This document shows positions 18,815 to 32,602 of a stretch of 32,602 nt of DNA, one piece after another. The stretch is from a virus (Duplodnaviria > Heunggongvirae > Uroviricota > Caudoviricetes), in IMG/VR virus record IMGVR_UViG_651324052_000001, positions 1-32,602 of that record, one strand, 5' to 3'. Position 1 is the first letter of the stretch; the number at the start of each line of letters is the position of its first letter. Under the pieces are notes generated by a model. That model searched no databases. It was not told where the DNA came from and was given only the letters and a program-made list of their open reading frames with translations. A program made the translations under genes and the position numbers.

Positions 18815-21800
18815 TTACAGTTTCTTATGCATTCCTAGTCTATGTGCTTCCTGTGTAAAATATTTTGTTACCTCTTGAATAACCTTTTTAATGCCTGGAT
18901 ATGTATCTTTATCAATACTTCCTTCAACATTAATTAAGTTATCATAATGCTGATTGATGGTAGTTCCCTTTCCGGTATCTTCTCTGACATTTCTTCGGAG
19001 AGATGCTTCCATAATCGCATTTTTATTTTCAGCAAGACTAAATAGGTTGTCTGTTAGCTTCTTAGGGACAATAGCATCGCCATATTCAAATGTTGCATAA
19101 TTGTCACTTCCACGCTTGATTCTAAGTTCTTTACCAACTTCATCAATTCTTGCAAGTTCAATTGCATTTGTGATTTTCTTCGTTCCTTTAGCATAACCAC
19201 TAATCTGATCTTGTCTTACCCACCCAAGATCACTGTAAAATCCAGGAGTTGATTGAGTACCTAGATGGATAGGGTATGGGCTATTAGGGTTCATATATGT
19301 AATATATAATTCCTCGCCAAGATGTTGATTTCCAACTGGGTTTGTTCCATACGAGTCGTTAAAATACATTCCACTATTGAATCGTACTTTGTCCCCTACT
19401 CGTGGAACGCCGTCTCCACCGCTAGAATTATTTTGCTGAGGTGGTTGTGGTTTAGGTGGTTCTGGTTTCTTTGTGACCGTAACTCCGACTGAAACGCTTA
19501 ATCCACTTCCATCAGTAGTAGATGCCGTTATCTGACATGCTCCTGGTTTGATAGCTCGAATTGTTCCCCCACTTACAGTAGCAACTCGTGTATTAGAAGA
19601 TTTCCAAGAAAGCTTCTTGTTTTTAGCATCAGTAGGTCGTATACTCGCAGTAATAGAAGTGGATTGACCTTCTTCTAATGACACTGATGTTTTATTAAGT
19701 TTCAATTCAGCAACAGGTCGATTGGATGTATTCGGAGCCTGTCCAATAATTCCTTCGATTCTATCATTGTTACTTTGTGCTGATCCGCTTTGAATAGCAC
19801 CGGTGTTTACGTTTGTAAAATCATTTGGTTTATAATTAGGGGCAGTAGTAATACTTCCATGTACTTGATTTTGTACGCCGCCGGCAGTACCCAAATTCCC
19901 AATGTTCGAATTAAAGTCACCACTCGGCTTAAAGCCTGTTCCGGCAATAATACTCTGAATTTTATCATAAGCTTGCTGATAATTATTAACAACATTTTCC
20001 AACATTTGAGAAATAACCTGCTCTTGTTTTTCAGCATTGTATGTGACTTCATTCAGAGTATCTTCAAGCTCTTTGTTTAGGTCTTCAGAAAGACCCTCAT
20101 ATCCGTCTTTTCTAACTTCATACTCACGGTCTTTCTGTGTTTGCTGTAATTGATCTTGAGCTTCTGCTAATTGAGCTTCTAATCTCTTTTTCTCTGCTTT
20201 TGCTGCTTCATTATTTACCGAATCTAAAGCAGCAATTTGTGCCTTTAATACATTAATATCTTTTGTCTGTTTCTTAAGATTACGAGAATAATCATCGTTC
20301 TTTTTCTTAATATCAAGCAGTTTTTCATATTTTTCAATGGATTTCTGAGCCATATCATTTTCAGCTTCTAATTGCTTACGATATAAGTCAACAATCTCAT
20401 TCTTGTAATCTTCAACAACACCTACAGAATCTCGGATAGAATCCAAGAATTCCTTTTGTTGTTCTTTATATTCACTTGTTGAAATGTTTCCGTTCTTTAA
20501 ATCTTCATCAAGTTTCTTTAATGCTTCATTATAATTTTTGATCTGCTGTTTTGCAGCATTCATGCCTTGAGAGATAAGTGCGAGATTAGTAATACCTTCA
20601 ATAGTTAATCCGCCGTTTTGACCAACAAATGCATCTGAATGAAGCATGCTTCTAAAATCATCAGTTTCTGTAATCAAATCTTTTAAGGCTTCTTGTCCTT
20701 CAAAGAAAGGATTCCATCTAACTTCCCAGATTTTATTTTTCAGTTCTTCAATGTTTTCGCTGGTACTGTAAATCTCATCATCAAGTTTTGCAATCTCATC
20801 AGCAATTTCTTGATACCTCTTAGACCCAACATCATACAATCCTTGCTCTTTTAAGAGTTCTTGACGTTTATTGAAATTAGCCTGAATAAGAGCATTAGCA
20901 TTGTCAAGTTGCTTCTTAAGATCTGCCTCACTAACCTTATCACCTTTTGCTTCGGTTAAGCTTGTGCCGTTTTCTAACCTCTGAGCTGTACGGTCAAGCA
21001 TATCAATAGTATGCTGTAACCGTGTAAGTTTCAGATTTCGGAACTCGTCTTCAAGTTCTACTAATCCAATTTGTGCATCAACGGCAGCTTCTTTCAGCTC
21101 ATTAAGTTTTGCCTGTGCTTCATACCACTCTTTAGATCCCTCAGACATGTATCCTTGAGACATAAGTTTTGATATTTCTGCTTCATAGTCCTTAATTTGC
21201 TGTTGTGTATTTTCTGCTAATTCTTGTTGATTTTTGATAGACTCTTTAATAGAAGCTTCTTGTTCCTTCCCATAAGCAGAATGACCAAGTTCTTCCCAAA
21301 GTTCACGTTGTTTTTCAAGATAGCCGTTTGCTGTATCCTGTTGATTATTCAGCATTTCCCAATATTCTTCAACGTTATCAAGAGCCTTTTGAACTAATTC
21401 GTCCTGCTTTTCAAGAAGTTCATCGTACTGAGAATTACAATCTTCTAATTTATCATAGTAATCTTGATAAATTTGAATTAACTTTTTGGTTTCTTCGTCA
21501 TAACCAGAAATATCAAATGAACCATTTTTAATCTGATTATAAATCGTAGGATCAAGTCCCATTTGAGATTCTAAACTTGTAAGATGCTCACGATATTTAT
21601 TAATAGCAGTGGAAGTATTAGAAAGATATTCTTGATTCTTTGCTAATGCTTCATACATCTTAATCTGCTTGTCTGGAAGTTTAGCAATACGTTCCATTTG
21701 ACTCATGAGATGGTCAAACTGACGTTCCATTGCCTTAAACACACGTTCAATCCAGTCAATCTGATCAGAGAGTGATTCTGATAATTTCTCAGCCGCTTCT

Positions 21801-24800
21801 GATGTATCTGTTGCTGCTTTTGAAAGATTTTCTGCGGCGTTGTTTACGGAAGAAGAGCCAGATGAACCTCCACCTGATAGATTGCCGTTGCCAGTATTTC
21901 CAGTCACCCAACTTCCAGAAGAGAATGCCGTTCCGTTAGATAGTGCATGTCCACGACCTCCGCCAGATGTGACCTTTCCATTTGCAAACAACTCAGCTGT
22001 TTGTTTGTGGTTGAAGACGATATCACCCTTCTTCAATGGGACAAACTGAGCGCCACCTTCAATTAAATGCCAACGTCCGTCTCTAACAATTAATTCGTTA
22101 CCAAGTTCATTTACAAGAGAAGTTTGATTTTTAGAAACACCCCAGTCACCACTTGCTTTTGCGTTACCAGAGTAGTGATACAAAGTAGTAGTTCCATTTG
22201 CGTTGGCGGTTCCATTTGCCACAGCTCCTTCTTCCTTGACATTGTTGGTAACAGAAGTAATGTATACAGTTTTACTTTGTACAGAAGAGATGGCAGAAGC
22301 AAGAGCTGATACATCGCCTGTTCCAGATGTAGTGGCAGATACAGTTACAGATTTACTTTGTACAGAATCAATAGCTGCTTTTAATGCTTTTACCAAATCC
22401 GTTCCAGTCACATTTGCTTTTGCATCAACAGTTTTTCCTTCAAGTGTTCCTAACGAAGCCTTTAATGCTCCGATGAGTTCCAATCCAGTTACATTTGCCA
22501 TTACGGATACAGATTTTGCTTCATTGCTCAATCCATTTATGGATGACTTGATACCATCAAGTTCGTCTTTTCCAGTCACACTTACAGAAACAGCTAATTC
22601 TTTATCATCAAGAGAAGACAGCATGGTTTCTAAAGCAGTAATGTCGTCTTTCCCTGCAACATTCACTGTAATAGTCACATCTTTGTCTTGTATGTCTTCA
22701 AGATGTAGGTCTTCTTTTTCAAGTTCAACAGGTATTTTAATCTCATTAGACATTAATTGAGAGGCAATCTCATCAGTACTTAATCCTTCAATATTTAATT
22801 CTGCCTTAATCTCTGGTGATATATTTTCAAGCTCGGCTTTTGCAGTTTCCACCATACCTAATGCTTCATTAAGTTTGCTTGTGTCGAAATTTGGAGTAGA
22901 AGCAATTATATCAGCATTAGTAACAGCGTCATAATAATTCTGAAAAAGTTGTATTGCATTTTGTAATTCCGCACTTGCATTACTTGTGTCAACATTTAAA
23001 ATAGCAGGCTCATTTAGTTCGGCGCGTTTCTGAATTAAAGTAGAAAGAACTTGCTGTGCAGATTCCAATTGAGAAGCATCACAGTTAATTGAACCATCAG
23101 AGTTATATAAAGAATTAATATATTCTTTTGTTTTTTCAATCTCATTATATATAGAAGAATCTGTTTTGGCATTTACGTCAATATCAACTTTCCCACCAGT
23201 AGCTTCTCTAATTGCGTCTGCTGCTAGAGTAGCTTTAGCAATAGCTTCGTCTAAATTACTTGTTTCTACTGACACAGAGGAAGGGTTTTCCAGAAGTTTC
23301 TTACGTTCTATGGCTTCTTCGAGTAATGTATTCAGATTTTCAACTTCTGCACTATCAACACCAAATTTAGTTTCCGATTCATCACGAGCCTTCGTTAATT
23401 CTGCGATTCGAGCGTCTAATCCATTAGCATCTAATTTAGACGTATCTACATCTAAATCAATTTCCGGAAAATCAGATCCAGCTTCTTTTAACTGTTGAAG
23501 ATTGGTTTTTGCTTTTTCAGCTTGAGCAGATAAGTCAGCCATTTTCTGAGCATAATTAGAATCGCCACTCGTATCACCAACACGAATTGTGTCATCGTAT
23601 TCAGTCATAGCCCTGTACAATGATTGAATAGCCTCTTTACTAATTCCTAATCTTTTTGCAATTTCTTCGTCTGCTCCAGTTTGAAATTCAAGAACACCAT
23701 TTTCTAACTCTTTTACCCATCCTAATCCCTCATTATCGGAAAGAGTTTTCATGTCTGTAACAAAGTTATCAAGACCTTGCTTAGTTCCGGTAAAGTATTT
23801 ATCAATTACAGGAAGAGATGCTTCGTATGCGGCGACAACTTCTTTCATAGAAGCAGTAGCTAAATCTTGATTAGAATAGAATTGCGATACAGCTCTAAAT
23901 TCCTCAGTGTTATATCGACCTTCTTTATAAAGCTCTTGTCCTCGTTCGCGCATTGTTTCAGAAACTGTGCGGAACATATCGCCTTCTTCGCCATTAGATT
24001 GTGCGCTCATCCATTTTTGATAAGCAGAAGTAGCACCATCATAGGCAGCCGATAATTGATTTACTGCTTCAAGTTGACGACTTAATCCGTCTATAACAAG
24101 TTGAGAATTATTATATTCAGAAGAACCTTTATCATAATTATTCTGTTCTGCATATGCTTTATTCAACTGCTCTTGAAGTGATTGTTGTTTTTCTGCAAAC
24201 TTCCCTTTTGTTATAGCTTCTTGTTGTGCTTGCAATTGGCGTAATGCTTCTCTGTTCAAATGAACACCGTTTGCGGTTTTCTCAAATAAAGTTGCAGGAT
24301 CATAACCTTCCAAATCTTCATATGCGGATGCTATTGCACCAATATCGCCTTCGAGTTCTCCTGTTTCTTCATTGAGAGAAACACCTAGCCCCTTGCCATT
24401 ATAACTATTTGCTAATACGGCATTTAAAGATTCTACAGAATTAATTTGTGATACAACATCTTTCTGGAAATCTGAAAAGCTTTCTTCAAGTTTAGTTAGA
24501 CCAGCGTCTTGACTGGCAAGTGCTGAAATTTCTTCTCTTAGAGTTTCGACACTAACACCTGCTTCATTACAAGCAACAACTAATTCAGGAAATCCCTTGG
24601 TGATTTCATCAACAGATAATTTGTCTCCACTTCTAAAAGCATCTACTAATTTCTGTTGTGCTTGAGCAAAATCATTATTTTCCCAAATTTTAGATAATGC
24701 TTTAGCTGCTTTGGCTTGAGGATTTTCTCTGGTGTAATCATCAATCACTTTTGTAATGTCATTGAATTTCTTTAGTTCTTTTGAAGACAACCCTTCTTTT

Positions 24801-25876
24801 GCAACACCAGTTGTTTCATCCATGAAATTCTTCCTAAGTTCTTGAAGTGATTTCATATTTTCAGAAACAGCATCCTCATACATTTTCATATCTGACTTAA
24901 GAGTATCTATTTCTCCGTCAATTTCAGATTTTCTTTTCTTGTCTTTTTTGGAAGTTCCTAAACCGTCACGTTCATTTAAAAGTTCTTCTCTTGTGTCTTT
25001 TAATTCATTTAATGCTTTGACTTCATTTTGAGTAGCTGTTAGAATATCCGTCTTTTCATAACCAGTATTTTCTACCCCTTGTGCAGCATTTGCGCCAGCA
25101 GCCATTCGATCAATCCAGTTATCAGACTCTAATAGTTCCTGTTGAGATGACTTTGTTGTTAAATCGTAAGTTTCTCTTTTATTTAGAGAATCCATTGCAG
25201 AACCAACAGCTTCTTTAGCTTCTTTATCTGCAATTTCTTTCTTTAAATCTCTCTGACGTTCTAGTTCAGCATTTTGTAATTTTAGTTGTGAAAGTTCAGA
25301 TTGCTCTACGAGATTTAAAGTCCCTTTGGATTCGAGTTCTGAAATTCTCGTAGATGTTGTTTCGATTTCAGAGTTTAAGGATTTTACTTCTGCCATTGTA
25401 GAAGCATAAGCTGATTGTGCTTCTTTTGCTTCTTCAACAGATCTCTTCATTTCAGTAGCTTTTAGATAAGTTAACCATGCTGCACCACCGACAACAGCTG
25501 CGCCGCCGATATACGGAATGGCTTTCTTAAATACCGTTAGTAATCCCTTTCCTGCATTCTTGAAGCCTTCCATAGCTTTTTGTCCGGTAGACATTCCATC
25601 TCCAAGACCGTCTAATGTTTTCTTTAATTCGCTTACACCTTCGGCTGCATCGCCAGCGCCTTCAGTAATATCTGCAACTGTATCTGCCCAACCAGTCATG
25701 TTTAATGCATCTTTTGCAAAATCCTTCGAAACACCGGAATGTTTAAGAATTTTCCCAACTTCTTCTAAATCTTTCGCATCGTCTAACAAATTTACCATTT
25801 TAGCAAATTTATTATTATAATCTAGTCCATTAAAATCTTTTAATAGTTCAGAGTATTTCCCTATCTCTTTTAATGA
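18815..25876 (-). CDS. Tail tape measure protein, 3' exon (C-terminal ~2350 aa, with Big_2-like and SH3-like domains near the C-terminus)
   Basis: Very long helical Ala/Lys/Glu-rich ORF upstream of Dit/Tal. It has LVNELGNELI...GDIVFNHKQT and GYAKGT motifs and an Ig-like LNKTSVSL...WKSSNTRVATV region. There is no RBS before ATG 25798, and the frame stays open upstream (SLKEIGKYSELLKDFNGLDYNNKFAK) to a TAG at 25904-25906. The 5' boundary is inferred. Confidence 0.85.
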   Translation of the reverse strand, partial: SLKEIGKYSELLKDFNGLDYNNKFAKMVNLLDDAKDLEEVGKILKHSGVSKDFAKDALNMTGWADTVADITEGAGDAAEGVSELKKTLDGLGDGMSTGQKAMEGFKNAGKGLLTVFKKAIPYIGGAAVVGGAAWLTYLKATEMKRSVEEAKEAQSAYASTMAEVKSLNSEIETTSTRISELESKGTLNLVEQSELSQLKLQNAELERQRDLKKEIADKEAKEAVGSAMDSLNKRETYDLTTKSSQQELLESDNWIDRMAAGANAAQGVENTGYEKTDILTATQNEVKALNELKDTREELLNERDGLGTSKKDKKRKSEIDGEIDTLKSDMKMYEDAVSENMKSLQELRKNFMDETTGVAKEGLSSKELKKFNDITKVIDDYTRENPQAKAAKALSKIWENNDFAQAQQKLVDAFRSGDKLSVDEITKGFPELVVACNEAGVSVETLREEISALASQDAGLTKLEESFSDFQKDVVSQINSVESLNAVLANSYNGKGLGVSLNEETGELEGDIGAIASAYEDLEGYDPATLFEKTANGVHLNREALRQLQAQQEAITKGKFAEKQQSLQEQLNKAYAEQNNYDKGSSEYNNSQLVIDGLSRQLEAVNQLSAAYDGATSAYQKWMSAQSNGEEGDMFRTVSETMRERGQELYKEGRYNTEEFRAVSQFYSNQDLATASMKEVVAAYEASLPVIDKYFTGTKQGLDNFVTDMKTLSDNEGLGWVKELENGVLEFQTGADEEIAKRLGISKEAIQSLYRAMTEYDDTIRVGDTSGDSNYAQKMADLSAQAEKAKTNLQQLKEAGSDFPEIDLDVDTSKLDANGLDARIAELTKARDESETKFGVDSAEVENLNTLLEEAIERKKLLENPSSVSVETSNLDEAIAKATLAADAIREATGGKVDIDVNAKTDSSIYNEIEKTKEYINSLYNSDGSINCDASQLESAQQVLSTLIQKRAELNEPAILNVDTSNASAELQNAIQLFQNYYDAVTNADIIASTPNFDTSKLNEALGMVETAKAELENISPEIKAELNIEGLSTDEIASQLMSNEIKIPVELEKEDLHLEDIQDKDVTITVNVAGKDDITALETMLSSLDDKELAVSVSVTGKDELDGIKSSINGLSNEAKSVSVMANVTGLELIGALKASLGTLEGKTVDAKANVTGTDLVKALKAAIDSVQSKSVTVSATTSGTGDVSALASAISSVQSKTVYITSVTNNVKEEGAVANGTANANGTTTLYHYSGNAKASGDWGVSKNQTSLVNELGNELIVRDGRWHLIEGGAQFVPLKKGDIVFNHKQTAELFANGKVTSGGGRGHALSNGTAFSSGSWVTGNTGNGNLSGGGSSGSSSVNNAAENLSKAATDTSEAAEKLSESLSDQIDWIERVFKAMERQFDHLMSQMERIAKLPDKQIKMYEALAKNQEYLSNTSTAINKYREHLTSLESQMGLDPTIYNQIKNGSFDISGYDEETKKLIQIYQDYYDKLEDCNSQYDELLEKQDELVQKALDNVEEYWEMLNNQQDTANGYLEKQRELWEELGHSAYGKEQEASIKESIKNQQELAENTQQQIKDYEAEISKLMSQGYMSEGSKEWYEAQAKLNELKEAAVDAQIGLVELEDEFRNLKLTRLQHTIDMLDRTAQRLENGTSLTEAKGDKVSEADLKKQLDNANALIQANFNKRQELLKEQGLYDVGSKRYQEIADEIAKLDDEIYSTSENIEELKNKIWEVRWNPFFEGQEALKDLITETDDFRSMLHSDAFVGQNGGLTIEGITNLALISQGMNAAKQQIKNYNEALKKLDEDLKNGNISTSEYKEQQKEFLDSIRDSVGVVEDYKNEIVDLYRKQLEAENDMAQKSIEKYEKLLDIKKKNDDYSRNLKKQTKDINVLKAQIAALDSVNNEAAKAEKKRLEAQLAEAQDQLQQTQKDREYEVRKDGYEGLSEDLNKELEDTLNEVTYNAEKQEQVISQMLENVVNNYQQAYDKIQSIIAGTGFKPSGDFNSNIGNLGTAGGVQNQVHGSITTAPNYKPNDFTNVNTGAIQSGSAQSNNDRIEGIIGQAPNTSNRPVAELKLNKTSVSLEEGQSTSITASIRPTDAKNKKLSWKSSNTRVATVSGGTIRAIKPGACQITASTTDGSGLSVSVGVTVTKKPEPPKPQPPQQNNSSGGDGVPRVGDKVRFNSGMYFNDSYGTNPVGNQHLGEELYITYMNPNSPYPIHLGTQSTPGFYSDLGWVRQDQISGYAKGTKKITNAIELARIDEVGKELRIKRGSDNYATFEYGDAIVPKKLTDNLFSLAENKNAIMEASLRRNVREDTGKGTTINQHYDNLINVEGSIDKDTYPGIKKVIQEVTKYFTQEAHRLGMHKKL

Positions 25877-25881
25877 CTGTG

Positions 25882-25890
25882 TGGTATAAT
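25882..25890 (+). promoter_or_regulatory. Extended -10 promoter for the Zn-ribbon gene
   Basis: TG-G-TATAAT lies ~48 bp upstream of ATG 25938, with an AGGAGG RBS in between. Confidence 0.6.
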
Positions 25891-25937
25891 ATAAAAAATG
25901 TTTCTATCATTTAATATATATTTTAGGAGGGATTTTA

Positions 25938-26420
25938 ATGGCATTATTAATTTGTTCTGAATGCAAAAAAGTTGTATCTGATAAAGCGGGAATATGTCCC
26001 CACTGTGGATGTCCAATAACAATAAAGGATGACTTGAATAGGCAATACACAAAAGTTAATGGCGTTGAATATGATGTAACAGAAATTGTTAAAATAATTC
26101 TCAATGCAGAGACATACAAAGAGTGGACTCCAGCCTCTGATATGATCAGAAATATGATGGACATTTCTCCGATAAAACTTATTAATCCAATACGTGAACT
26201 TGGAAGAGCACCGGAAGAAATTAATTGCGAAACATTATCCGACTTCTCAAAAAGACAACGAGCTATTCAGGCATCCAAGATTCACTGTCCAAACTGTAGG
26301 TCAACAGATGTAAAACGAATATCCGCAACTGAGAGAGCAGCGTCTGTGATTGGTTTTGGTCTACTTTCAAAGAAAATCAACAAAACATATAAGTGTAATA
26401 AATGTAAGTATACTTGGTAA
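25938..26420 (+). CDS. Double zinc-ribbon domain protein
   Basis: N-terminal CSEC...CPHCG and C-terminal CPNC...CNKC motifs; RBS AGGAGG. Confidence 0.8.
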   Translation: MALLICSECKKVVSDKAGICPHCGCPITIKDDLNRQYTKVNGVEYDVTEIVKIILNAETYKEWTPASDMIRNMMDISPIKLINPIRELGRAPEEINCETLSDFSKRQRAIQASKIHCPNCRSTDVKRISATERAASVIGFGLLSKKINKTYKCNKCKYTW

Positions 26421-26442
26421 AATAACAGTAAATTTGCTTTCC

Positions 26443-26471
26443 TTGACATTGTGTAATTGTAATGTTACAGT
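26443..26471 (+). promoter_or_regulatory. Putative sigma-A promoter for the YHYH/Ig gene
   Basis: TTGACA-17 bp-TACAGT with a TG extension. Confidence 0.5.
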
Positions 26472-26531
26472 TATAGAAGTGTGAGCGGTTTCTATAAGAG
26501 ATATAAACTACTTATAAGAGAGGGAAAACAA

Positions 26532-27914
26532 ATGAAAAAAAGAAAATGTATTATTTGTGCAGTAATATTATCTATGTTACTGCCTATTTCTGTGCACGCA
26601 CATCCAGGCAGAACAGATTCTAGTGGTGGTCATCATGACTATAAAAATCAAAGTGGACTAGGAAGCTATCATTATCATCATGGTATGGGTGCACATTTAC
26701 ATCCGGGAGGAGTTTGTCCTTATGGTGGTGGCGCGGTTCCATCATACACACCGCCAGTTCGTCCGAAACCAACTATTACTGTAAACAATCCACCCACCCA
26801 GCTTTATGTTGGCGAAAGTTCTGGATTAAACATCACTTTAAGCAATGTATCACAAAATACTCTTAGTGTCACATCAAGCAATCCACATGTCGTAAGAGTA
26901 AATCCAGATAATACATTAACTGCTGTAGGATCAGGAGATACTACAGTTACGGTAAGTGCATCTGGCGCAGATAATCAAGCATTTGTAGTAACAGTTAACA
27001 CAATCCCAGTAGAATCAATAGTTATTAAAAATTCAACAAACAGACTTCAATTAAATAGTACTATAGTATTTGAAACAGAAATATTACCCAGCAACGCCAC
27101 TGATAAGACAGTTACATGGAAATCAGAAAATGAAGAAATAGCTGTTATAACTGATAAAGGATCTGTAGTAGGTAAGAATCCTGGCAAAACCAAAATTACC
27201 TGCGAAGCAGTTAGTGGCGTTAAAACGGAAATAGAATTAGAGATATATGAAATATTTCCTGAATCAATAGAACTTGAAGCAAACAAAATTGAATTAGAAT
27301 GTTTAGACACATATGATTTAGATGTCAAAATTATGCCAGAAACAGCAAATAATAAAAATTATAGCATAGAAAGCGAGAACAATGATGTCGCTAAAATAGA
27401 AGATAAAAAGATTAAAGCTGTATCAGACGGCATAACTAACATAATAGTTAAAACAGACAATGGTATTGAACGCAAAGTACCTATTAAAGTTTATCATGTG
27501 CCAACAGATAACATACATATAGATGACTCAAAAACAAATTATTTTATGGATTTATTCTCTATTAAGCTATTAGATAAAAGAGAAAGTATTAGCCTGGAAT
27601 CTGTAGTTTATCCAAGTTATGCCACTTTTAAAAATCCAGAGTGGAAGAGTAGTGATGAAAATATTATTGATATTAGAAATAATAAACCATATATTGAAAG
27701 TACGGGTTGTGTAACTCTTACATCTACGACAATCGATAAAGTTTCTGATAGTATAACAATTTTCATCATAGATCGAGATATTGCTTTGTTGATAATTTTT
27801 GGAGTAACACTGATCCTTCTGTTTGTCAATGGATGGATTATTTATAAATACAAAAATAATATTATCGCCATAAAAAATAAATTAATGTCCAAAATTAAAC
27901 ATACAGATGTCTAA
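26532..27914 (+). CDS. Surface protein: signal peptide, YHYH-like domain, tandem Big_2 Ig-like repeats, C-terminal TM anchor
   Basis: MKKRK...VHA signal peptide; HPGRTDSSGGHH...YHYHHG; repeats such as PSNATDKTVTWKSEN; hydrophobic C-terminal helix followed by basic residues. The RBS GAGGG favours start 26532. Confidence 0.8.
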   Translation: MKKRKCIICAVILSMLLPISVHAHPGRTDSSGGHHDYKNQSGLGSYHYHHGMGAHLHPGGVCPYGGGAVPSYTPPVRPKPTITVNNPPTQLYVGESSGLNITLSNVSQNTLSVTSSNPHVVRVNPDNTLTAVGSGDTTVTVSASGADNQAFVVTVNTIPVESIVIKNSTNRLQLNSTIVFETEILPSNATDKTVTWKSENEEIAVITDKGSVVGKNPGKTKITCEAVSGVKTEIELEIYEIFPESIELEANKIELECLDTYDLDVKIMPETANNKNYSIESENNDVAKIEDKKIKAVSDGITNIIVKTDNGIERKVPIKVYHVPTDNIHIDDSKTNYFMDLFSIKLLDKRESISLESVVYPSYATFKNPEWKSSDENIIDIRNNKPYIESTGCVTLTSTTIDKVSDSITIFIIDRDIALLIIFGVTLILLFVNGWIIYKYKNNIIAIKNKLMSKIKHTDV

Positions 27915-28001
27915 ACTGTAAATATAAATGGTAGTGGAAGTGTAATGTCTGTAAGAGATATTTTTAGGATTGCGGAAAAGTAATTAGAAATAGAGATGTT
28001 T

Positions 28002-28265
28002 CTATAGCATATCTGTTTCTAATTCGCGTATTCTGCGCTTTAATTCATCACACGATTTGTGCTGTTTCCCAAATTTATATTTGTATGAATAATTGGTTTT
28101 TTGATGACCAAAATTATCTTCGATTTGCTTATTAAAGTCGTTTTGAATTTTATTTAATTCATGCAAATTATTTTTGTTTAATGAATATAAGAATATAACC
28201 ATTCTACATTTTGTAAAATGTAAGAGTGCACGAATTCTGTAATAGAATAACTGAAAAAAATTCAA
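28002..28265 (-). CDS. Hypothetical protein, divergent partner of HEXXH gene 1
   Basis: TTG start preceded by the RBS AAGGTGGTGA. Confidence 0.5.
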   Translation of the reverse strand: MNFFQLFYYRIRALLHFTKCRMVIFLYSLNKNNLHELNKIQNDFNKQIEDNFGHQKTNYSYKYKFGKQHKSCDELKRRIRELETDML

Positions 28266-28294
28266 TTTAATTCACCACCTTTGGAGGATAAATA

Positions 28295-29014
28295 ATGATT
28301 ACTGAAGAAATAAAACTTGAAACAAAATTACGTTGGTTGGAATATTGTAAAGAAATTAAAAATATCCCGCCAATACAAGAGATAGAGCTTCTTGATAAAA
28401 ATGATTCTTCACACGCAAGATTTAAATCAATAGATTTGTATAATCAAAAATATATCTTATATGTTCAAAAGGAGATATATGAATATACTGATGTTTCGAC
28501 AAGATCTATATTATTCCATGAATTTACTCATCTTGCGGACGCAATAAAATATAAAGATAAAAAATATGAAGTGTTCCTTAATATAATGTCTTCTTATTCA
28601 GAATATCATGCATCATATATTGAAATGCTTCAAATTCTAAAATGTTGTGACAGTAAATTAATAAACAAAGAATCAGAAGCTATTTACAGAGCTGGCTGTC
28701 TTACCTTAGAATCCCTTATGTCTCAATCATACACAGCAGCGATAAAATGTTTTGAAAAAATTGATGAGTCTTTTAATGGAGTACATGAGTTTTATTACTA
28801 TTTAGGATATAGAAAGGCTTTACAAAGATATAGTTTGGAATTTAATTTTAATTTATTAGATTTTAATTCATTGTATATGGTTTATATTAAAAATATTTTT
28901 GATTTTATTGAGTCAAATGAAATTACAAAATTAGCAGATGAACACTCAAAATTATTACACTCTATTGATAAGGAGATAGAATCAAATAAAATTTTGAATC
29001 ATTTTAATATTTGA
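28295..29014 (+). CDS. Putative Zn metallopeptidase (HEXXH), paralog 1
   Basis: RSILFHEFTH motif plus downstream SEYHASYIEM (candidate third-ligand Glu); RBS GGAGG. Confidence 0.7.
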   Translation: MITEEIKLETKLRWLEYCKEIKNIPPIQEIELLDKNDSSHARFKSIDLYNQKYILYVQKEIYEYTDVSTRSILFHEFTHLADAIKYKDKKYEVFLNIMSSYSEYHASYIEMLQILKCCDSKLINKESEAIYRAGCLTLESLMSQSYTAAIKCFEKIDESFNGVHEFYYYLGYRKALQRYSLEFNFNLLDFNSLYMVYIKNIFDFIESNEITKLADEHSKLLHSIDKEIESNKILNHFNI

Positions 29015-29329
29015 AAGTTGCTGTTTTTTTATGTGGCTACTTGGTTCTGCCAGGCAAAGCTGCAGACATCAATGACAACGACAAAGGTAAAGAGGAGAAG
29101 AACGGAGTCTATCTTATAATTCCACATCGCCCAAAACTTTTTCTTTAAACTTTTTTATGATTGAATAACATTCAGATTGGCTTACATCAGTACCGCAATA
29201 TAGCGTGTTGATTAGACACTTTACAATATAATTTTCTTTTTCTTCACGCTGCAAATAATTATCAACGGAATTATTGTTAAACATATTAACTGTTTGATTC
29301 TGAAAGGGAACTAATTTAAATATGAAAAA

Positions 29330-29641
29330 TTATTTGTCAATTAATCGTTTTAATAATTTTTCATGTTCTCGACAAATAATATCAAGATCAAATTCGGGCG
29401 AAATATCATCTGGGAGTTTTTCTACGGTTTTGTCTGGATTGATTTGATATACATCACCGTTCCAAATAAATTGCTTTTCAGATATGTACAGGCAATTAGA
29501 TTCAAAAGAGTAGTTTTTAGGGTATGTTAAAAAATTCATCGATTTTTTTAACTCTTGCTGCATTTTTATATCGTCAATTTGTAATTTGATTTTATATAAA
29601 TCCATAATTATTTGTTTTTCTTCACTTGTTAATTTAATAAT
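29330..29641 (-). CDS. Hypothetical protein, divergent partner of HEXXH gene 2 (ATT start at 29641 or ATG at 29605)
   Basis: The RBS AAGGTGGTGA is followed by an in-frame ATT at the same spacing as the TTG of the first module. Confidence 0.5.
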   Translation of the reverse strand: MIKLTSEEKQIIMDLYKIKLQIDDIKMQQELKKSMNFLTYPKNYSFESNCLYISEKQFIWNGDVYQINPDKTVEKLPDDISPEFDLDIICREHEKLLKRLIDK

Positions 29642-29668
29642 TTTAATTCACCACCTTAAGGAGATTTT

Positions 29669-30430
29669 ATGAAAGTATTAGATATTTTTTCATTGTATTT
29701 AGAATATCAAAAGGAATATCCTAGAAATGATTATCCAGAATTATCGGTAGACAACCTTGTGTATGTTCATGATGTTGATTTTTGGTTTCAATTTAATTCG
29801 TCTAAATTATATGATGATCAATACGAATTACAAGTCAATATGGAAGCGTTTGCATTGAATGATACTTATTTAAGAAGTATCTTGTATCATGAGTTTACGC
29901 ATATATATGATTCTCTTACGTTTAAAAATAAACCAATGGATGAGTATGAAAAAAATATGTCACACTACTCAGAAATACATGCATCTTACATTGAAATGAG
30001 AAAAAGAATAAGGGAAATATCTCATTCTTTATATATACAGGATGAAAAAAATGAAATTCTAATCCATATTTATCTACAAAAAGAGTATTCAACCGTTAAA
30101 ACAACATGGTCAAATTATATAGAATATAATCCGGAAACCATTACAGATAAAATGAAACGGCTCTGTTATTTTGTTGGACATTATAAATATCTAAAAGATC
30201 ATTATAATATACCTGAATTTAAAATTGTATCTCCTTATGCTGAAGAAATATACGGTATTATAAATGAATACTCTAACGGAATGTATAATCTAAACAAATA
30301 CTTTAATAAAATTATTCAAAAGTCAAAAGATTACAAAAACAGTCAATACCTTGATAAATTGCAATCAATTTTAAATGAAGATATAATAAACCAAGATGCA
30401 TTATTGGGATTTTTCACGAACAAGATATGA
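29669..30430 (+). CDS. Putative Zn metallopeptidase (HEXXH), paralog 2
   Basis: RSILYHEFTH and SEIHASYIEM motifs; RBS AAGGAG. Confidence 0.7.
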   Translation: MKVLDIFSLYLEYQKEYPRNDYPELSVDNLVYVHDVDFWFQFNSSKLYDDQYELQVNMEAFALNDTYLRSILYHEFTHIYDSLTFKNKPMDEYEKNMSHYSEIHASYIEMRKRIREISHSLYIQDEKNEILIHIYLQKEYSTVKTTWSNYIEYNPETITDKMKRLCYFVGHYKYLKDHYNIPEFKIVSPYAEEIYGIINEYSNGMYNLNKYFNKIIQKSKDYKNSQYLDKLQSILNEDIINQDALLGFFTNKI

Positions 30431-30578
30431 TCAGCAAATGTGGATCAACACTAATTATAACTGACGACAAACCGTGTTGTTATACATCGCTTGCCTTTCA
30501 AAAAATCATTCCTTTCATAATAGATGATTATTTCAGGCACAAAAATAGAGCAGTAGTAGTTACTGCTCTTGATTAAAA

Positions 30579-30959
30579 TTAACCATTTTGTTCCAAATCT
30601 AATAATCTTCGATTTATTTTTTTCATTAAAAAATCGTATTTTTGTGTATCGCATTGATAATTTTCCTGTGATTCACCATTATCTAATAGATAAGAATACT
30701 CCTCTATTAAAACCGAATTACTTTTGAATGTTTTAGGTCTTTCGTTAGATGCAATTATATGAGCCACTGAATCTGCAAGCAAGTCATCAAATACTTTTAT
30801 ATTTTTTCTATATTTTTTTTCTATAAGTTTTCGACGTTCTTCAAAGTCCTTTTCAATCATTAATTCTTCTTCAGATGTAATTTCAATAATTTGAATATTT
30901 TTTCGAAATGACAAGTCAACCATTTCACATTTTATTTTTTTCATTAATTTATCCCTCAT
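30579..30959 (-). CDS. Hypothetical protein, coupled to the upstream 2TM protein
   Basis: Its start overlaps the stop of the upstream gene. An alternative start at ATG 30944 follows GAGGG. Confidence 0.55.
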   Translation of the reverse strand: MRDKLMKKIKCEMVDLSFRKNIQIIEITSEEELMIEKDFEERRKLIEKKYRKNIKVFDDLLADSVAHIIASNERPKTFKSNSVLIEEYSYLLDNGESQENYQCDTQKYDFLMKKINRRLLDLEQNG

Positions 30960-31888
30960 TATTCATTTGGATTTACATAAAGTCCTTTATTAATTTTGTC
31001 TGCCAAAACAATCAAATTAGAATATGGAACAATGTTTTCTTCTGCAAATTTACGTAATTTTATACGATCAGTGTTTATAATATAATTATACTTGGTAATC
31101 ACTTGAAAGATTCCAAGCATTTTATTACTAGTGCAATACACTGGAATAGCAATGTATTGTGTATATTTCGATAAATCAGTATCTATACTAACTTTATTGA
31201 AGATTCGCTGGATCTCTTCATTATTAATAGCTATTTCAATGTCAGATAGATTGTCTTTAATTAAGTTAGCATAATGATACGAACTTTTTTCTAAAGGTTC
31301 TATATTTTTACACGATCGAGGGCGCGTCGATGAAGGATTGGAATGTGCTACCATATGTATCCATTTCTCCCTGTTTTCATCTTCCCAATAATATATAAAA
31401 CCAACGGATATTTTGCTGGTATCATCAATTCCTGTATAAGTTATAATCATATCCCTACAATAACTACAGATATCATCAAAAATTTTATATCTATCCCAAC
31501 ATTTTTTCGGAGCTTTACCATTTTGAATCACTTCATTGGCAAAAGAGTTGATATTTAAAGCCCATTTCTCTGAAATGGAAGAAAACATGCCAACAGAGTA
31601 AGAACATGTATTTTTATATCTATCTAATTCATTCAAAATTAAATTTAATTGGTTGTTTTTTTGATTCATTTCATATATAATTTCGCTTGCCTTACTCTCT
31701 TGATTTCCATAAAATAATACTGCAATAATTAAACAAAACATTAAAAATACAGAAACAGTACAAAATACTGCTTTCAAAACATTATTATTTACAAAAGAAA
31801 TAAAAATACCAATGCAGGAAATAATAGTTGGTATACTTATTAATATTGTATTCTTAAACCAAGGTTTTTGGTAGAATTTATCTTCCAT
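30959..31888 (-). CDS. Membrane protein: two N-terminal TM helices, coiled coil, GAF-like domain
   Basis: Two hydrophobic segments in the first 60 aa. The C-terminal YIAIPV...LGIFQV resembles the terminal strands of a GAF domain. Confidence 0.6.
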   Translation of the reverse strand: MEDKFYQKPWFKNTILISIPTIISCIGIFISFVNNNVLKAVFCTVSVFLMFCLIIAVLFYGNQESKASEIIYEMNQKNNQLNLILNELDRYKNTCSYSVGMFSSISEKWALNINSFANEVIQNGKAPKKCWDRYKIFDDICSYCRDMIITYTGIDDTSKISVGFIYYWEDENREKWIHMVAHSNPSSTRPRSCKNIEPLEKSSYHYANLIKDNLSDIEIAINNEEIQRIFNKVSIDTDLSKYTQYIAIPVYCTSNKMLGIFQVITKYNYIINTDRIKLRKFAEENIVPYSNLIVLADKINKGLYVNPNE

Positions 31889-31982
31889 GCAATATATCCC
31901 CCATATATTTATTTATATAGTATACACCATATTTCGACAAATTACTATCAGAACATTAGTTTGATTTGTCGAATAAATAGGA

Positions 31983-32602
31983 GATAGTAAACATTTTTCT
32001 CATATCACTGGAACCAAACAGCATTAGAGATTTGCTGCTAGAAAATAATCCGAAGATTATATTGGTTACGGCACTCCAGATTTTGCCGGAAGTTTTAAAA
32101 GCATATATCTATGCCACACATGGTACTGACAGTCTATGTTAAGTCAGATTGCCAGTAACGTATTACTAAAACTTTTCTAAATCGCAATACGCACTATGCC
32201 TTAAAAGAAGAATAGCATTTATGGCAGTTATTCTCTCCGAGGATGGGTATGTCTCTGGGGATACTATCTGTTAATGACCTTCATTATATACGCCAAAAGA
32301 ATTAACTCAGATATTGTCCTGCTCGTTGTCCTTTATATTCTTACTTAGATGTCTTAACATTTTCATATTAATATTCATATAAGAACAAATCATTTATTTG
32401 GGTTTCCCTACCTACTGTTATGGGTATGATTTGCAAAATAAGATTTCAAGCATTTACTCCTCTATGGATCAAAACCATAATAAATATATGGAACTCACCA
32501 TGCTCCGCCACTTGATATTACAATGCCATAATATTGTAAATCTTATGTCGGCTAGACTCATATATAATATAGGAATATTTTACTTATTTTATTATATATG
32601 TA
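31983..32602 (-). ncRNA. Group I intron-like ribozyme core (atypical P7)
   Basis: Minus-strand motifs: P AAAUGCUUGAAA (32455-32444), Q GGACAACGAGCAGGA (32331-32317), R CCAGAGACAUAC (32258-32247) and S AAGGCAUAGUGC (32202-32191). Helices: P4 UGCUUG/CGAGCA, P3 GAGGA/UCCUC, P6 GGA/UCC, P6a UAUCUG/CAGAUA, P8 AGAAUA/UAUUCU and P9 CGUAUUGC/GUAAUACG. There is also a cUUCGg hairpin at 32045-32060. Confidence 0.75.

Follow-up and report, generated by a model that had tools for sequence, protein, structure and literature searches.

The window examined in this study covers bases 1-32,602 of a 161,307-bp phage record from IMG/VR, and it ends within a minus-strand RNA that lies between the two halves of a tape measure gene. 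The N-terminal half is encoded by an ORF of 647 aa (genome 32620..34563, minus strand; phrog_4211, 1.6e-65; PF10145), which is followed by approximately 731 nt of non-coding sequence, by cargo ORFs and then by a minus-strand ORF of 2,327 aa (18815..25798). Protein conservation in exon 1 stops at ...FFKNLD and that in exon 2 begins exactly at 25876 (UCA), so that the gene is split between FFKNLD and SLKEIGK. The exon 2 frame is open back to 25903, and the exon 2 start has neither a Shine-Dalgarno sequence nor a start codon of its own; in two relatives (L004 and L005), 97 conserved exon-2 codons precede any ATG, GTG or TTG. In-silico ligation of both exons joins GAU to UCA in frame, with AACUUAGAU followed by UCAUUAAAAGAG as the predicted junction letters, and the script-ligated junction aligns unbroken to eight uninterrupted tape measure proteins (best P0023, E 1e-96, 490 residues). 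In metagenomes, homologues without the interruption (P0023, P0032, P0044 and others) have the two halves in a single protein, and the nearest named relatives are SPbeta-like phages with a single tape measure protein of about 2,300-2,750 aa. In full, the intron measures 6,746 nt and runs on the minus strand from genome 32622 to 25877. Its 5' splice site is located at genome 32623, after GAU and 21 nt past base 32602; the window end cuts the RNA, and the first 20 nt of the intron fall outside. The ribozyme occupies the first 540-640 nt of the intron, and the long cargo-bearing 'loop' begins behind P9.1. The coordinates of all features are collected in Table 1.

Table 1. Features of the interrupted tape measure gene and its intron, in window coordinates
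Feature	Position	Strand	Letters and pairing
Visible part of the group I ribozyme core	32084..32602	minus	Common to all lineages
Guide, P10	32561..32558	minus	AUGA, pairs with exon-2 start UCAU
Internal guide, P1	32557..32552	minus	GUCUAG, pairs with exon-1 end CU(U)AGAU; U.G at the cut
P2-like hairpin	32551..32505	minus	Compensatory changes, e.g. AUGG/CCAU to GUGG/CCAC (P2-like/P2.1-like helices)
P2.1-like hairpin	32501..32464	minus	Compensatory changes
P3, 5' strand	32458..32462	minus	GAGGA, pairs with UCCUC at 32243..32239
P4, 5' strand (P element AUGCUUGAAA)	32447..32451	minus	GCUUG, pairs with CGAGC at 32325..32321 (Q element AACGAGCAGG)
P5 and long P5abc-like extension	32326..32443	minus	Includes GGGAAACCC hairpin; double changes in 14 pairs
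P6 and P6a	32259..32319	minus	GGA/UCC (P6) and UAUCUG/CAGAUA (P6a); variable tip, deleted in L014, with AUCC/GGAU
R element, P7 5' strand	32255..32248	minus	GAGACAUA; g32255 a54 g53 a52 c51 a50 u49 a48
P8 hairpin	32203..32238	minus	Double changes in four pairs
S element, P7 3' strand	32196..32191	minus	UAGUGC; u32196 a95 g94 u93 g92 c91
P9 hairpin	32190..32160	minus	Compensatory changes in P9/P9.1, e.g. GUAUU/AAUAC to AUAUU/AAUAU
P9.1-like hairpin	32157..32124	minus	See P9
Docking helix, core strand	32114..32120	minus	UGUGUGG, pairs with CCACACA at 25884..25878
Lineage-specific peripheral extension	31983..32083	minus	Ends in AAAAAUGUUUACUAUC (31998..31983), inverted-repeat arm enclosing the cargo
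Cargo within the intron	25909..31982	both	ORFs listed below
Cargo ORFs, minus strand	30959..31888; 30579..30959	minus	
Cargo ORFs, plus strand	25938..26420; 26481..27914; 28295..29014; 29669..30430	plus	First ORF: Zn-ribbon, conserved; second ORF: Big_2
Intron 3' end	25877..25908	minus	Inverted-repeat arm GAUAGAAACAUUUUU (25908..25894), docking strand CCACACA (25884..25878), terminal G (25877)
Exon 2	18815..25876	minus	Encodes the tape measure C-terminal part (2,353 aa); first codon UCA, the Ser of SLKEIGK

Relatives were sought in IMG/VR, ENA and other metagenomes using the N-terminal half and conserved motifs as queries. Five lineages with the entire core at 68-75% identity were obtained (window/L006, L009, L014, L017/L018/L011 and L022), each of which recurs near-unchanged across several samples, together with three more distant lineages (L024, L112 type and L116 type) that share the insertion site and the core elements. 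The layout is the same in all lineages, namely, N-terminal half, conserved non-coding block, variable cargo, antisense zinc-ribbon gene and C-terminal half. Intron length among the lineages ranges from 2,220 to 8,742 nt, the intron of L009 being only 2.2 kb long, and the core strands are invariant across the eight lineages at about 50-75% identity. The non-coding block had no blastn match in the phage collection, and a 15-mer scan of species-representative genomes returned 66 matches, all attributable to chance (best nhmmer E-value, 0.025). Cultured isolates (assemblies of 3-4 million letters) contain the core sequence, as do contigs from the human gut, gut metagenomes from mouse, dog and other sources and a single soil metagenome; because of this distribution, the phage is probably a prophage of a gut Firmicute. 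In public sequencing data, the stretch is present in 20 rows, one of which is on record as RNA. Comparison of runs X17, X18, X19 and X20 with genome 25001-34600 revealed contigs of related phages (probably DNA), joints of cargo replacement and no junction of 32623 with 25876, a result that counts neither way.

Other insertions were observed in the same gene of the relatives. An extra insertion of ~1.2 kb with a zf-FCS ORF is found in exon 1 at the site equivalent to genome 33313 (L005:11256-12460, L009:10635-11856 and L017); in L009 it carries a weak RF00028 match of 12.4 bits, and the insertion, which the window phage does not have, probably represents a second group I intron. A further insertion, of ~520 bp, lies near genome 32920 in L017. 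In L007 (11470-13880), a different intron with two ORFs and the canonical R/S pair UCAACGACUA ... AAAUAGUCU stands in place of the exon 1 end and the core of the cargo intron, and L007 retains the final 149 nt of the 5' block of the window type (32142..31995).

The unguided RNAalifold structure consists of P3 enclosing P4, P5 with its long extension, P6 and P6a, followed by P3', P8, P9 and P9.1, with three hairpins upstream. This topology is the group I arrangement (P3-P4-P5-P6 / P7-P3'-P8-P7' with the P3/P7 pseudoknot, then P9), with R and S left over for the P7 pseudoknot. P7 and P1 were added before pairs were counted on alignment A4, which covers five lineages. In this alignment, 96.0% of the cells were paired, compared with 88.4% in shuffles and 36-45% with the partners slid, and double changes were found in 37 pairs versus 19.4 +/- 2.7 in shuffles, a value reached by none of 500 shuffles. 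P3 and P4 are nearly unvarying among the five close lineages, P3 being invariant there; in L113 and L116, P3 is AAGAA/UUCUU (two compensatory pairs) and P4 changes from GCUUG/CGAGC to ACUGG/UCAGU. P8 covaries widely in alignment A6. The initial annotation of this stretch, made from its letters, had described P3, P4, P6 and P8 as intact; this description holds and extends to P5, P6a and P9, all of which have covariation support. The P element and the Q element, AA(C/U)(G/A)AGCAGG across the family, match the classical group I P/Q consensus. A pairing of the exon end with AUCUAAGU near 32350 was considered and dropped in favour of a local pairing within the P5 extension, which covaries in three lineages, and of P1 with the internal guide.

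The deviation of this core lies in P7, where R and S are connected by ACCCAUCCUC and the P8 hairpin. The initial annotation had read R with one extra A and S as UAGUGC, and both were recovered on the minus strand with an exactly matching span of 32191-32258. In the standard register (positions abbreviated to their last two digits), the pairs are a48-u96, u49-a95, c51-g94 and a52-u93, with a50 bulged, and g53 then stands opposite g92, which is the G.G opposition that the annotation had described at the guanosine site. The base g32253, the guanosine-site G equivalent to Tetrahymena G264, thus faces g32192, which occupies the place of the C in the canonical G-binding G-C pair. Homologues share this deviation, and such sharing had been named in the initial annotation as an indication of function. 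R is CAGAGAC(A)UACC, invariant in the eight lineages apart from the optional A (a32250), which is present in four lineages and absent in L022, L024, L113 and L116; the extra A is a tolerated and dispensable bulge, because half of the lineages are without it. S is (C/U)AUAGU with an invariant UAGU, and the next base is G in seven lineages, A in one (L014) and C in none of the eight. The P7 of the family is accordingly composed of four invariant Watson-Crick pairs, AC(A)UA/UAGU, with the guanosine-site G facing a purine above them (a G.G opposition in seven lineages and G.A in the remaining one). The canonical UAGUC, which would have marked the window letters as a private mutation, occurs in no homologue.

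The RF00028 consensus has UCAaAGACUA as R and AUAGUC as S; the family R is this consensus with or without one extra A, and the family S, AAGG(C/U)AUAGUG, differs from it by one base. The canonical site (RF00028; G264-C311) and the window family thus have in common four adjacent P7 pairs, a bulged A, the J8/7 sequence AAGG[C/U]A and the terminal G, whereas the C of the G-C pair is replaced by G, or by A in one lineage, in all eight lineages. As the P7 pairs never vary, covariation does not inform the register, which is set by homology to the consensus. Canonical GACUA/UAGUC is present in introns of related phages, one in L007 at another place in this gene and one in an SPbeta-like phage of Staphylococcus, and the odd S is therefore fixed in the intron family rather than being a trait of the host phages. 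The R/S-like pair seen in L008 was not used, as P3' and P8 would not fit there. Within P7, G264:C311 is described as the only strictly conserved pair, and swapping it abolished activity in Tetrahymena (PMC2860135).

Both splice sites bear group I signals, namely, a P1 with U.G and a terminal G with P10. All seven sequences have the U.G wobble of P1 at the final base of the exon, and exon and guide covary (GAU/GUC; GGU/GCC in L014, A-U to G-C; AGU/GCU). The exon CUAAGU of L113 pairs with GCUUAG, and P1 of L116 covaries too. The P1 loop holds an unusual hairpin insertion of about 75 nt, which contains the stop codon behind the splice site; this stop-codon hairpin was itself rejected as P1, having no conserved U.G pair. 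P10 comprises 3-5 bp, with UCAU/AUGA replaced by UCAC/GUGG in L009 (one compensatory change), and is weak or imperfect in L006 and L022. The terminal G is kept in six lineages, and the bases preceding it vary (caG, acG, uuG, uuG, cuG and uuG). The docking helix of 7 bp abuts the terminal G, and compensatory changes in other lineages affect its two G-proximal pairs: the first of these, adjoining the terminal G, is U-A in the window and A-U in L009, L018 and L014, and the second is G-C, G.U or A-U. The guide bases GUC (32555-32557, minus strand) are also pairable with GGC of the invariant AAAACUUCCGGCA at the core end (32085-32087), and the changes at these positions fit pairing (U.G, U-A and C-G); an alternative pairing that competes with P1 could be formed by these bases.

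The cargo differs even between phages that are 97-99% identical, with the break in identity at window position 31995. In the window lineage, for which it was shown, an inverted-repeat duplex is formed between 31998..31983 and 25908..25894; RNAduplex matches for a cargo-closing helix in other lineages are mostly AU-rich or pair a ribosome-binding site with an anti-site. Each inverted-repeat arm (25878-25930, plus strand; 31983-32010, minus strand) also reads as an inward-facing promoter module, with an extended -10 (TGgTATAAT on the plus strand, TGaTATGAG on the minus strand) followed by AAAAAUGUUU(A)CUAUC. The extended -10 TGgTATAAT lies on the strand opposite the intron 3' end and would serve the Zn-ribbon gene. 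Judging from the letters, one sequence would have two roles, as promoter and 5' UTR at the DNA level and, in the intron RNA, as a helix that closes off the cargo. A similar motif is found ~1 kb into the intron in L003 and L006. In L014 (about 9,480-8,790, minus strand), the first sense cargo gene and the antisense Zn-ribbon gene start with nearly the same ribosome binding site and AUGGCAU, and these shared gene starts constitute a strong inverted repeat across the cargo.

The Zn-ribbon gene (plus strand) encodes 160 aa with two zinc ribbons (CxxC...CxxC at each end; phrog_2546). It is the sole cargo gene conserved in all lineages, is always antisense and always adjoins the 3' splice site, and its product may be a factor of the element itself. 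Pfam and PHROGs scans of the cargo and the Zn-ribbon ORF detected no transposase core domain and gave weak zinc-ribbon matches only. A terminator-like hairpin at 30569..30547 (minus strand; AUUUUUG behind a 9-bp stem) directly follows the pair of sense-strand cargo ORFs and, as predicted from its sequence, would end the exon-1 transcript unless read through.

Rfam searches at the gathering threshold and at E<=10 of the window, a 2.6-kb stretch, the 566-nt core, an 18 kb extended locus and five relatives gave no group I match to the window RNA, and RF00028 found nothing in the whole 161-kb record. RF00028 scores the canonical introns of related phages at 12-25 bits, under its 50-bit cut-off. 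As these canonical introns also fall below the threshold, the absent match was read as low sensitivity of the model, and the case for a group I intron therefore rests on comparative analysis.

We consider it probable, if well short of certain, that this locus of an SPbeta-like gut phage carries a selected and probably splicing 6,746-nt group I intron that holds cargo and has a guanosine pocket built on a G.G or G.A pair. The far 3' end of the RNA would return to the core through the docking helix, abutting the terminal G, and through P10. A G.G or G.A pair would still present the Hoogsteen face of the 5'-strand G, and the pocket would still bind guanosine. The intron would then splice by the ordinary two-step pathway to yield a tape measure protein of 3,000 aa. 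Splicing, the use of G as cofactor and the geometry of the purine-purine pair are what we infer from these features. The retained terminal G has to occupy this pocket at step 2, and for that reason we think that the pocket still recognises G. The suggestion in the initial annotation of an altered cofactor or chemistry loses force for the same reason, this G being kept in every lineage checked. Its suggestion of a decayed intron is contradicted by the strong covariation, the core strands invariant in eight lineages and an exon 2 that has no start of its own; decay is excluded because of the conservation and covariation. The points that may be held against the splicing intron are the loss of activity on changing 264:311 in Tetrahymena (PMC2860135), the lack of an Rfam match, the invariant P7 and the short P10. 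A wider proposal is advanced more tentatively, at somewhat less than even confidence, namely, that a widespread natural family of at least eight lineages at one tape measure site in gut phages would splice with a G.G or G.A pocket, fetching its 3' site by the docking helix, possibly in trans, across exchangeable holds with 2-9 kb of accessory genes.

A single continuous precursor is not assured, because the terminator-like hairpin and 4.5 kb of convergent plus-strand genes separate the core from the 3' splice site. The same ribozyme may then act in trans: exon 1 and the core would be on a transcript that ends inside the cargo, exon 2 and the 3' intron end on a second transcript, and the docking helix, the inverted-repeat arms and P10 would assemble the two. 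Such an arrangement would account for a terminator placed on the intron strand after two sense-strand cargo genes, for a remainder of the intron that is antisense to four convergent genes, for a 3' end bearing two conserved or covarying strands complementary to the core region, and for the tolerance of introns of up to 8.7 kb. However, no promoter for an exon-2 transcript stands out, the scan having found 55 promoter-like sites versus 49 expected from shuffles, which is not above shuffles, and the L009 intron is only 2.2 kb long, so that cis-splicing is unproblematic there. To our knowledge, natural trans-splicing group I introns are known only from organelles. We regard splicing in trans as unlikely, though worth keeping in view.

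A domesticated relic that no longer splices would leave the two tape measure halves as separate proteins, with the RNA retained in some other role, for example in 3'-end formation, exon-1 mRNA stability or cargo control. No member has the universal G-C pair, a stop codon immediately follows the 5' splice site in the window, and in L009, L014 and L022 a TTG codon ends in the terminal G, where gene callers begin the C-terminal protein. These observations agree with a relic, but in the window and L006 exon 2 follows a CAG or ACG codon and no Shine-Dalgarno sequence is present, L004 and L005 are without any start for the conserved codons mentioned above, and the uninterrupted homologues are single proteins. 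Moreover, without splicing there would be no conservation or covariation of the U.G pair, the terminal G, P10 and the docking helix, and a relic of this type is considered a distinctly unlikely explanation.

The oddity of P7 could also be reduced to two bulges if the pocket were canonical in a shifted register, with g32253 paired to c32191 and g32192 bulged. This register had been raised in the initial annotation, and it is indeed possible in the window sequence as well as in four other lineages with C at that position; elsewhere this base is U (L009), G (L024) or A (L112 and L116 types), whereas the preceding purine is always kept. The shifted register was rejected as the solution of the family because the required C varies and a guanosine-binding pair should not vary freely, and we judge it improbable. 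Translational bypassing at the ribosome, of the T4 gene 60 type with the RNA as a scaffold, which the annotation had offered as a non-splicing way of joining the halves, would explain a stop codon at the base of a conserved hairpin right behind the last shared codon, but it is excluded because of the size and content of the gap (2,220-8,742 nt with genes on both strands, versus a short gap of ~50 nt flanked by matched codons for take-off and landing), the position of the stop is not conserved, the hairpin is the P1-loop insertion, and splicing signals, with U.G, terminal G, P10 and the 3' docking helix all conserved and covarying, account for all conserved features, so that hardly any credence is given to it.

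The splicing intron favoured here resembles several known systems in part. The T4 nrdD (sunY) intron likewise has its core upstream of an inserted coding sequence and a distant 3' site chosen by P9.0 and P10; unlike the window intron, it carries one same-strand endonuclease ORF of ~0.8 kb and has a canonical P7. IStrons (CdISt1 and BcISt1) also consist of a 5' group I ribozyme followed by a long 3' insertion of foreign genes, and they carry IS200/IS605 transposase genes at the 3' end; the Pfam and PHROGs scans detected no transposase core domain in the window cargo. The group I introns TMP-IVS1/2/3 interrupt tape measure genes of Bacillus cereus-group prophages (Tourasse and Kolsto 2008, PMC2504315), and like the window intron they lie in the tape measure gene of temperate Firmicute phages. 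Many TMP-IVS are without a homing endonuclease and are inherited passively with the phage, and group I introns are described as sized from 200 bp to over 1 kb (PMC2504315). TMP-IVS are of the IA1/IA2 type and of ordinary size with at most a homing endonuclease gene, whereas the window family is 2.2-8.7 kb long and carries several unrelated genes on both strands; the window intron has a non-canonical P7, and the comparison with TMP-IVS concerns size and content.

The giant ND5-717 group I intron of hexacoral mitochondria is obligatory and vertically inherited, measures 18-19 kb, contains many unrelated genes and ends in A (Chi et al. 2019, PMC6545197). It is similar to the window intron in holding many unrelated genes and in departing from a 'universal' guanosine feature. 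It is organellar, with ordinary mitochondrial genes as cargo in P8, and is removed by back-splicing of a permuted precursor (PMC6545197), whereas the window intron is hosted by a phage and has its cargo after P9.1, the cargo being variable and bidirectional, the terminal G kept and the pocket altered. Tape measure introns and giant gene-carrying group I introns are thus already known; what is new is a phage intron with variable cargo on two strands and the family-wide loss of the canonical guanosine-site pair.

All other catalytic hallmarks are kept while a purine is fixed in P7, and the family constitutes a natural experiment on guanosine recognition that, if the reading is true, would represent a second natural architecture for the guanosine pocket. 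For genome annotation, these tape measure genes get called as two unrelated ORFs. The intron shows a phage parking kilobases of changeable accessory genes in an essential structural gene without losing that gene, which bears on the organisation of phage accessory and defence-type islands.
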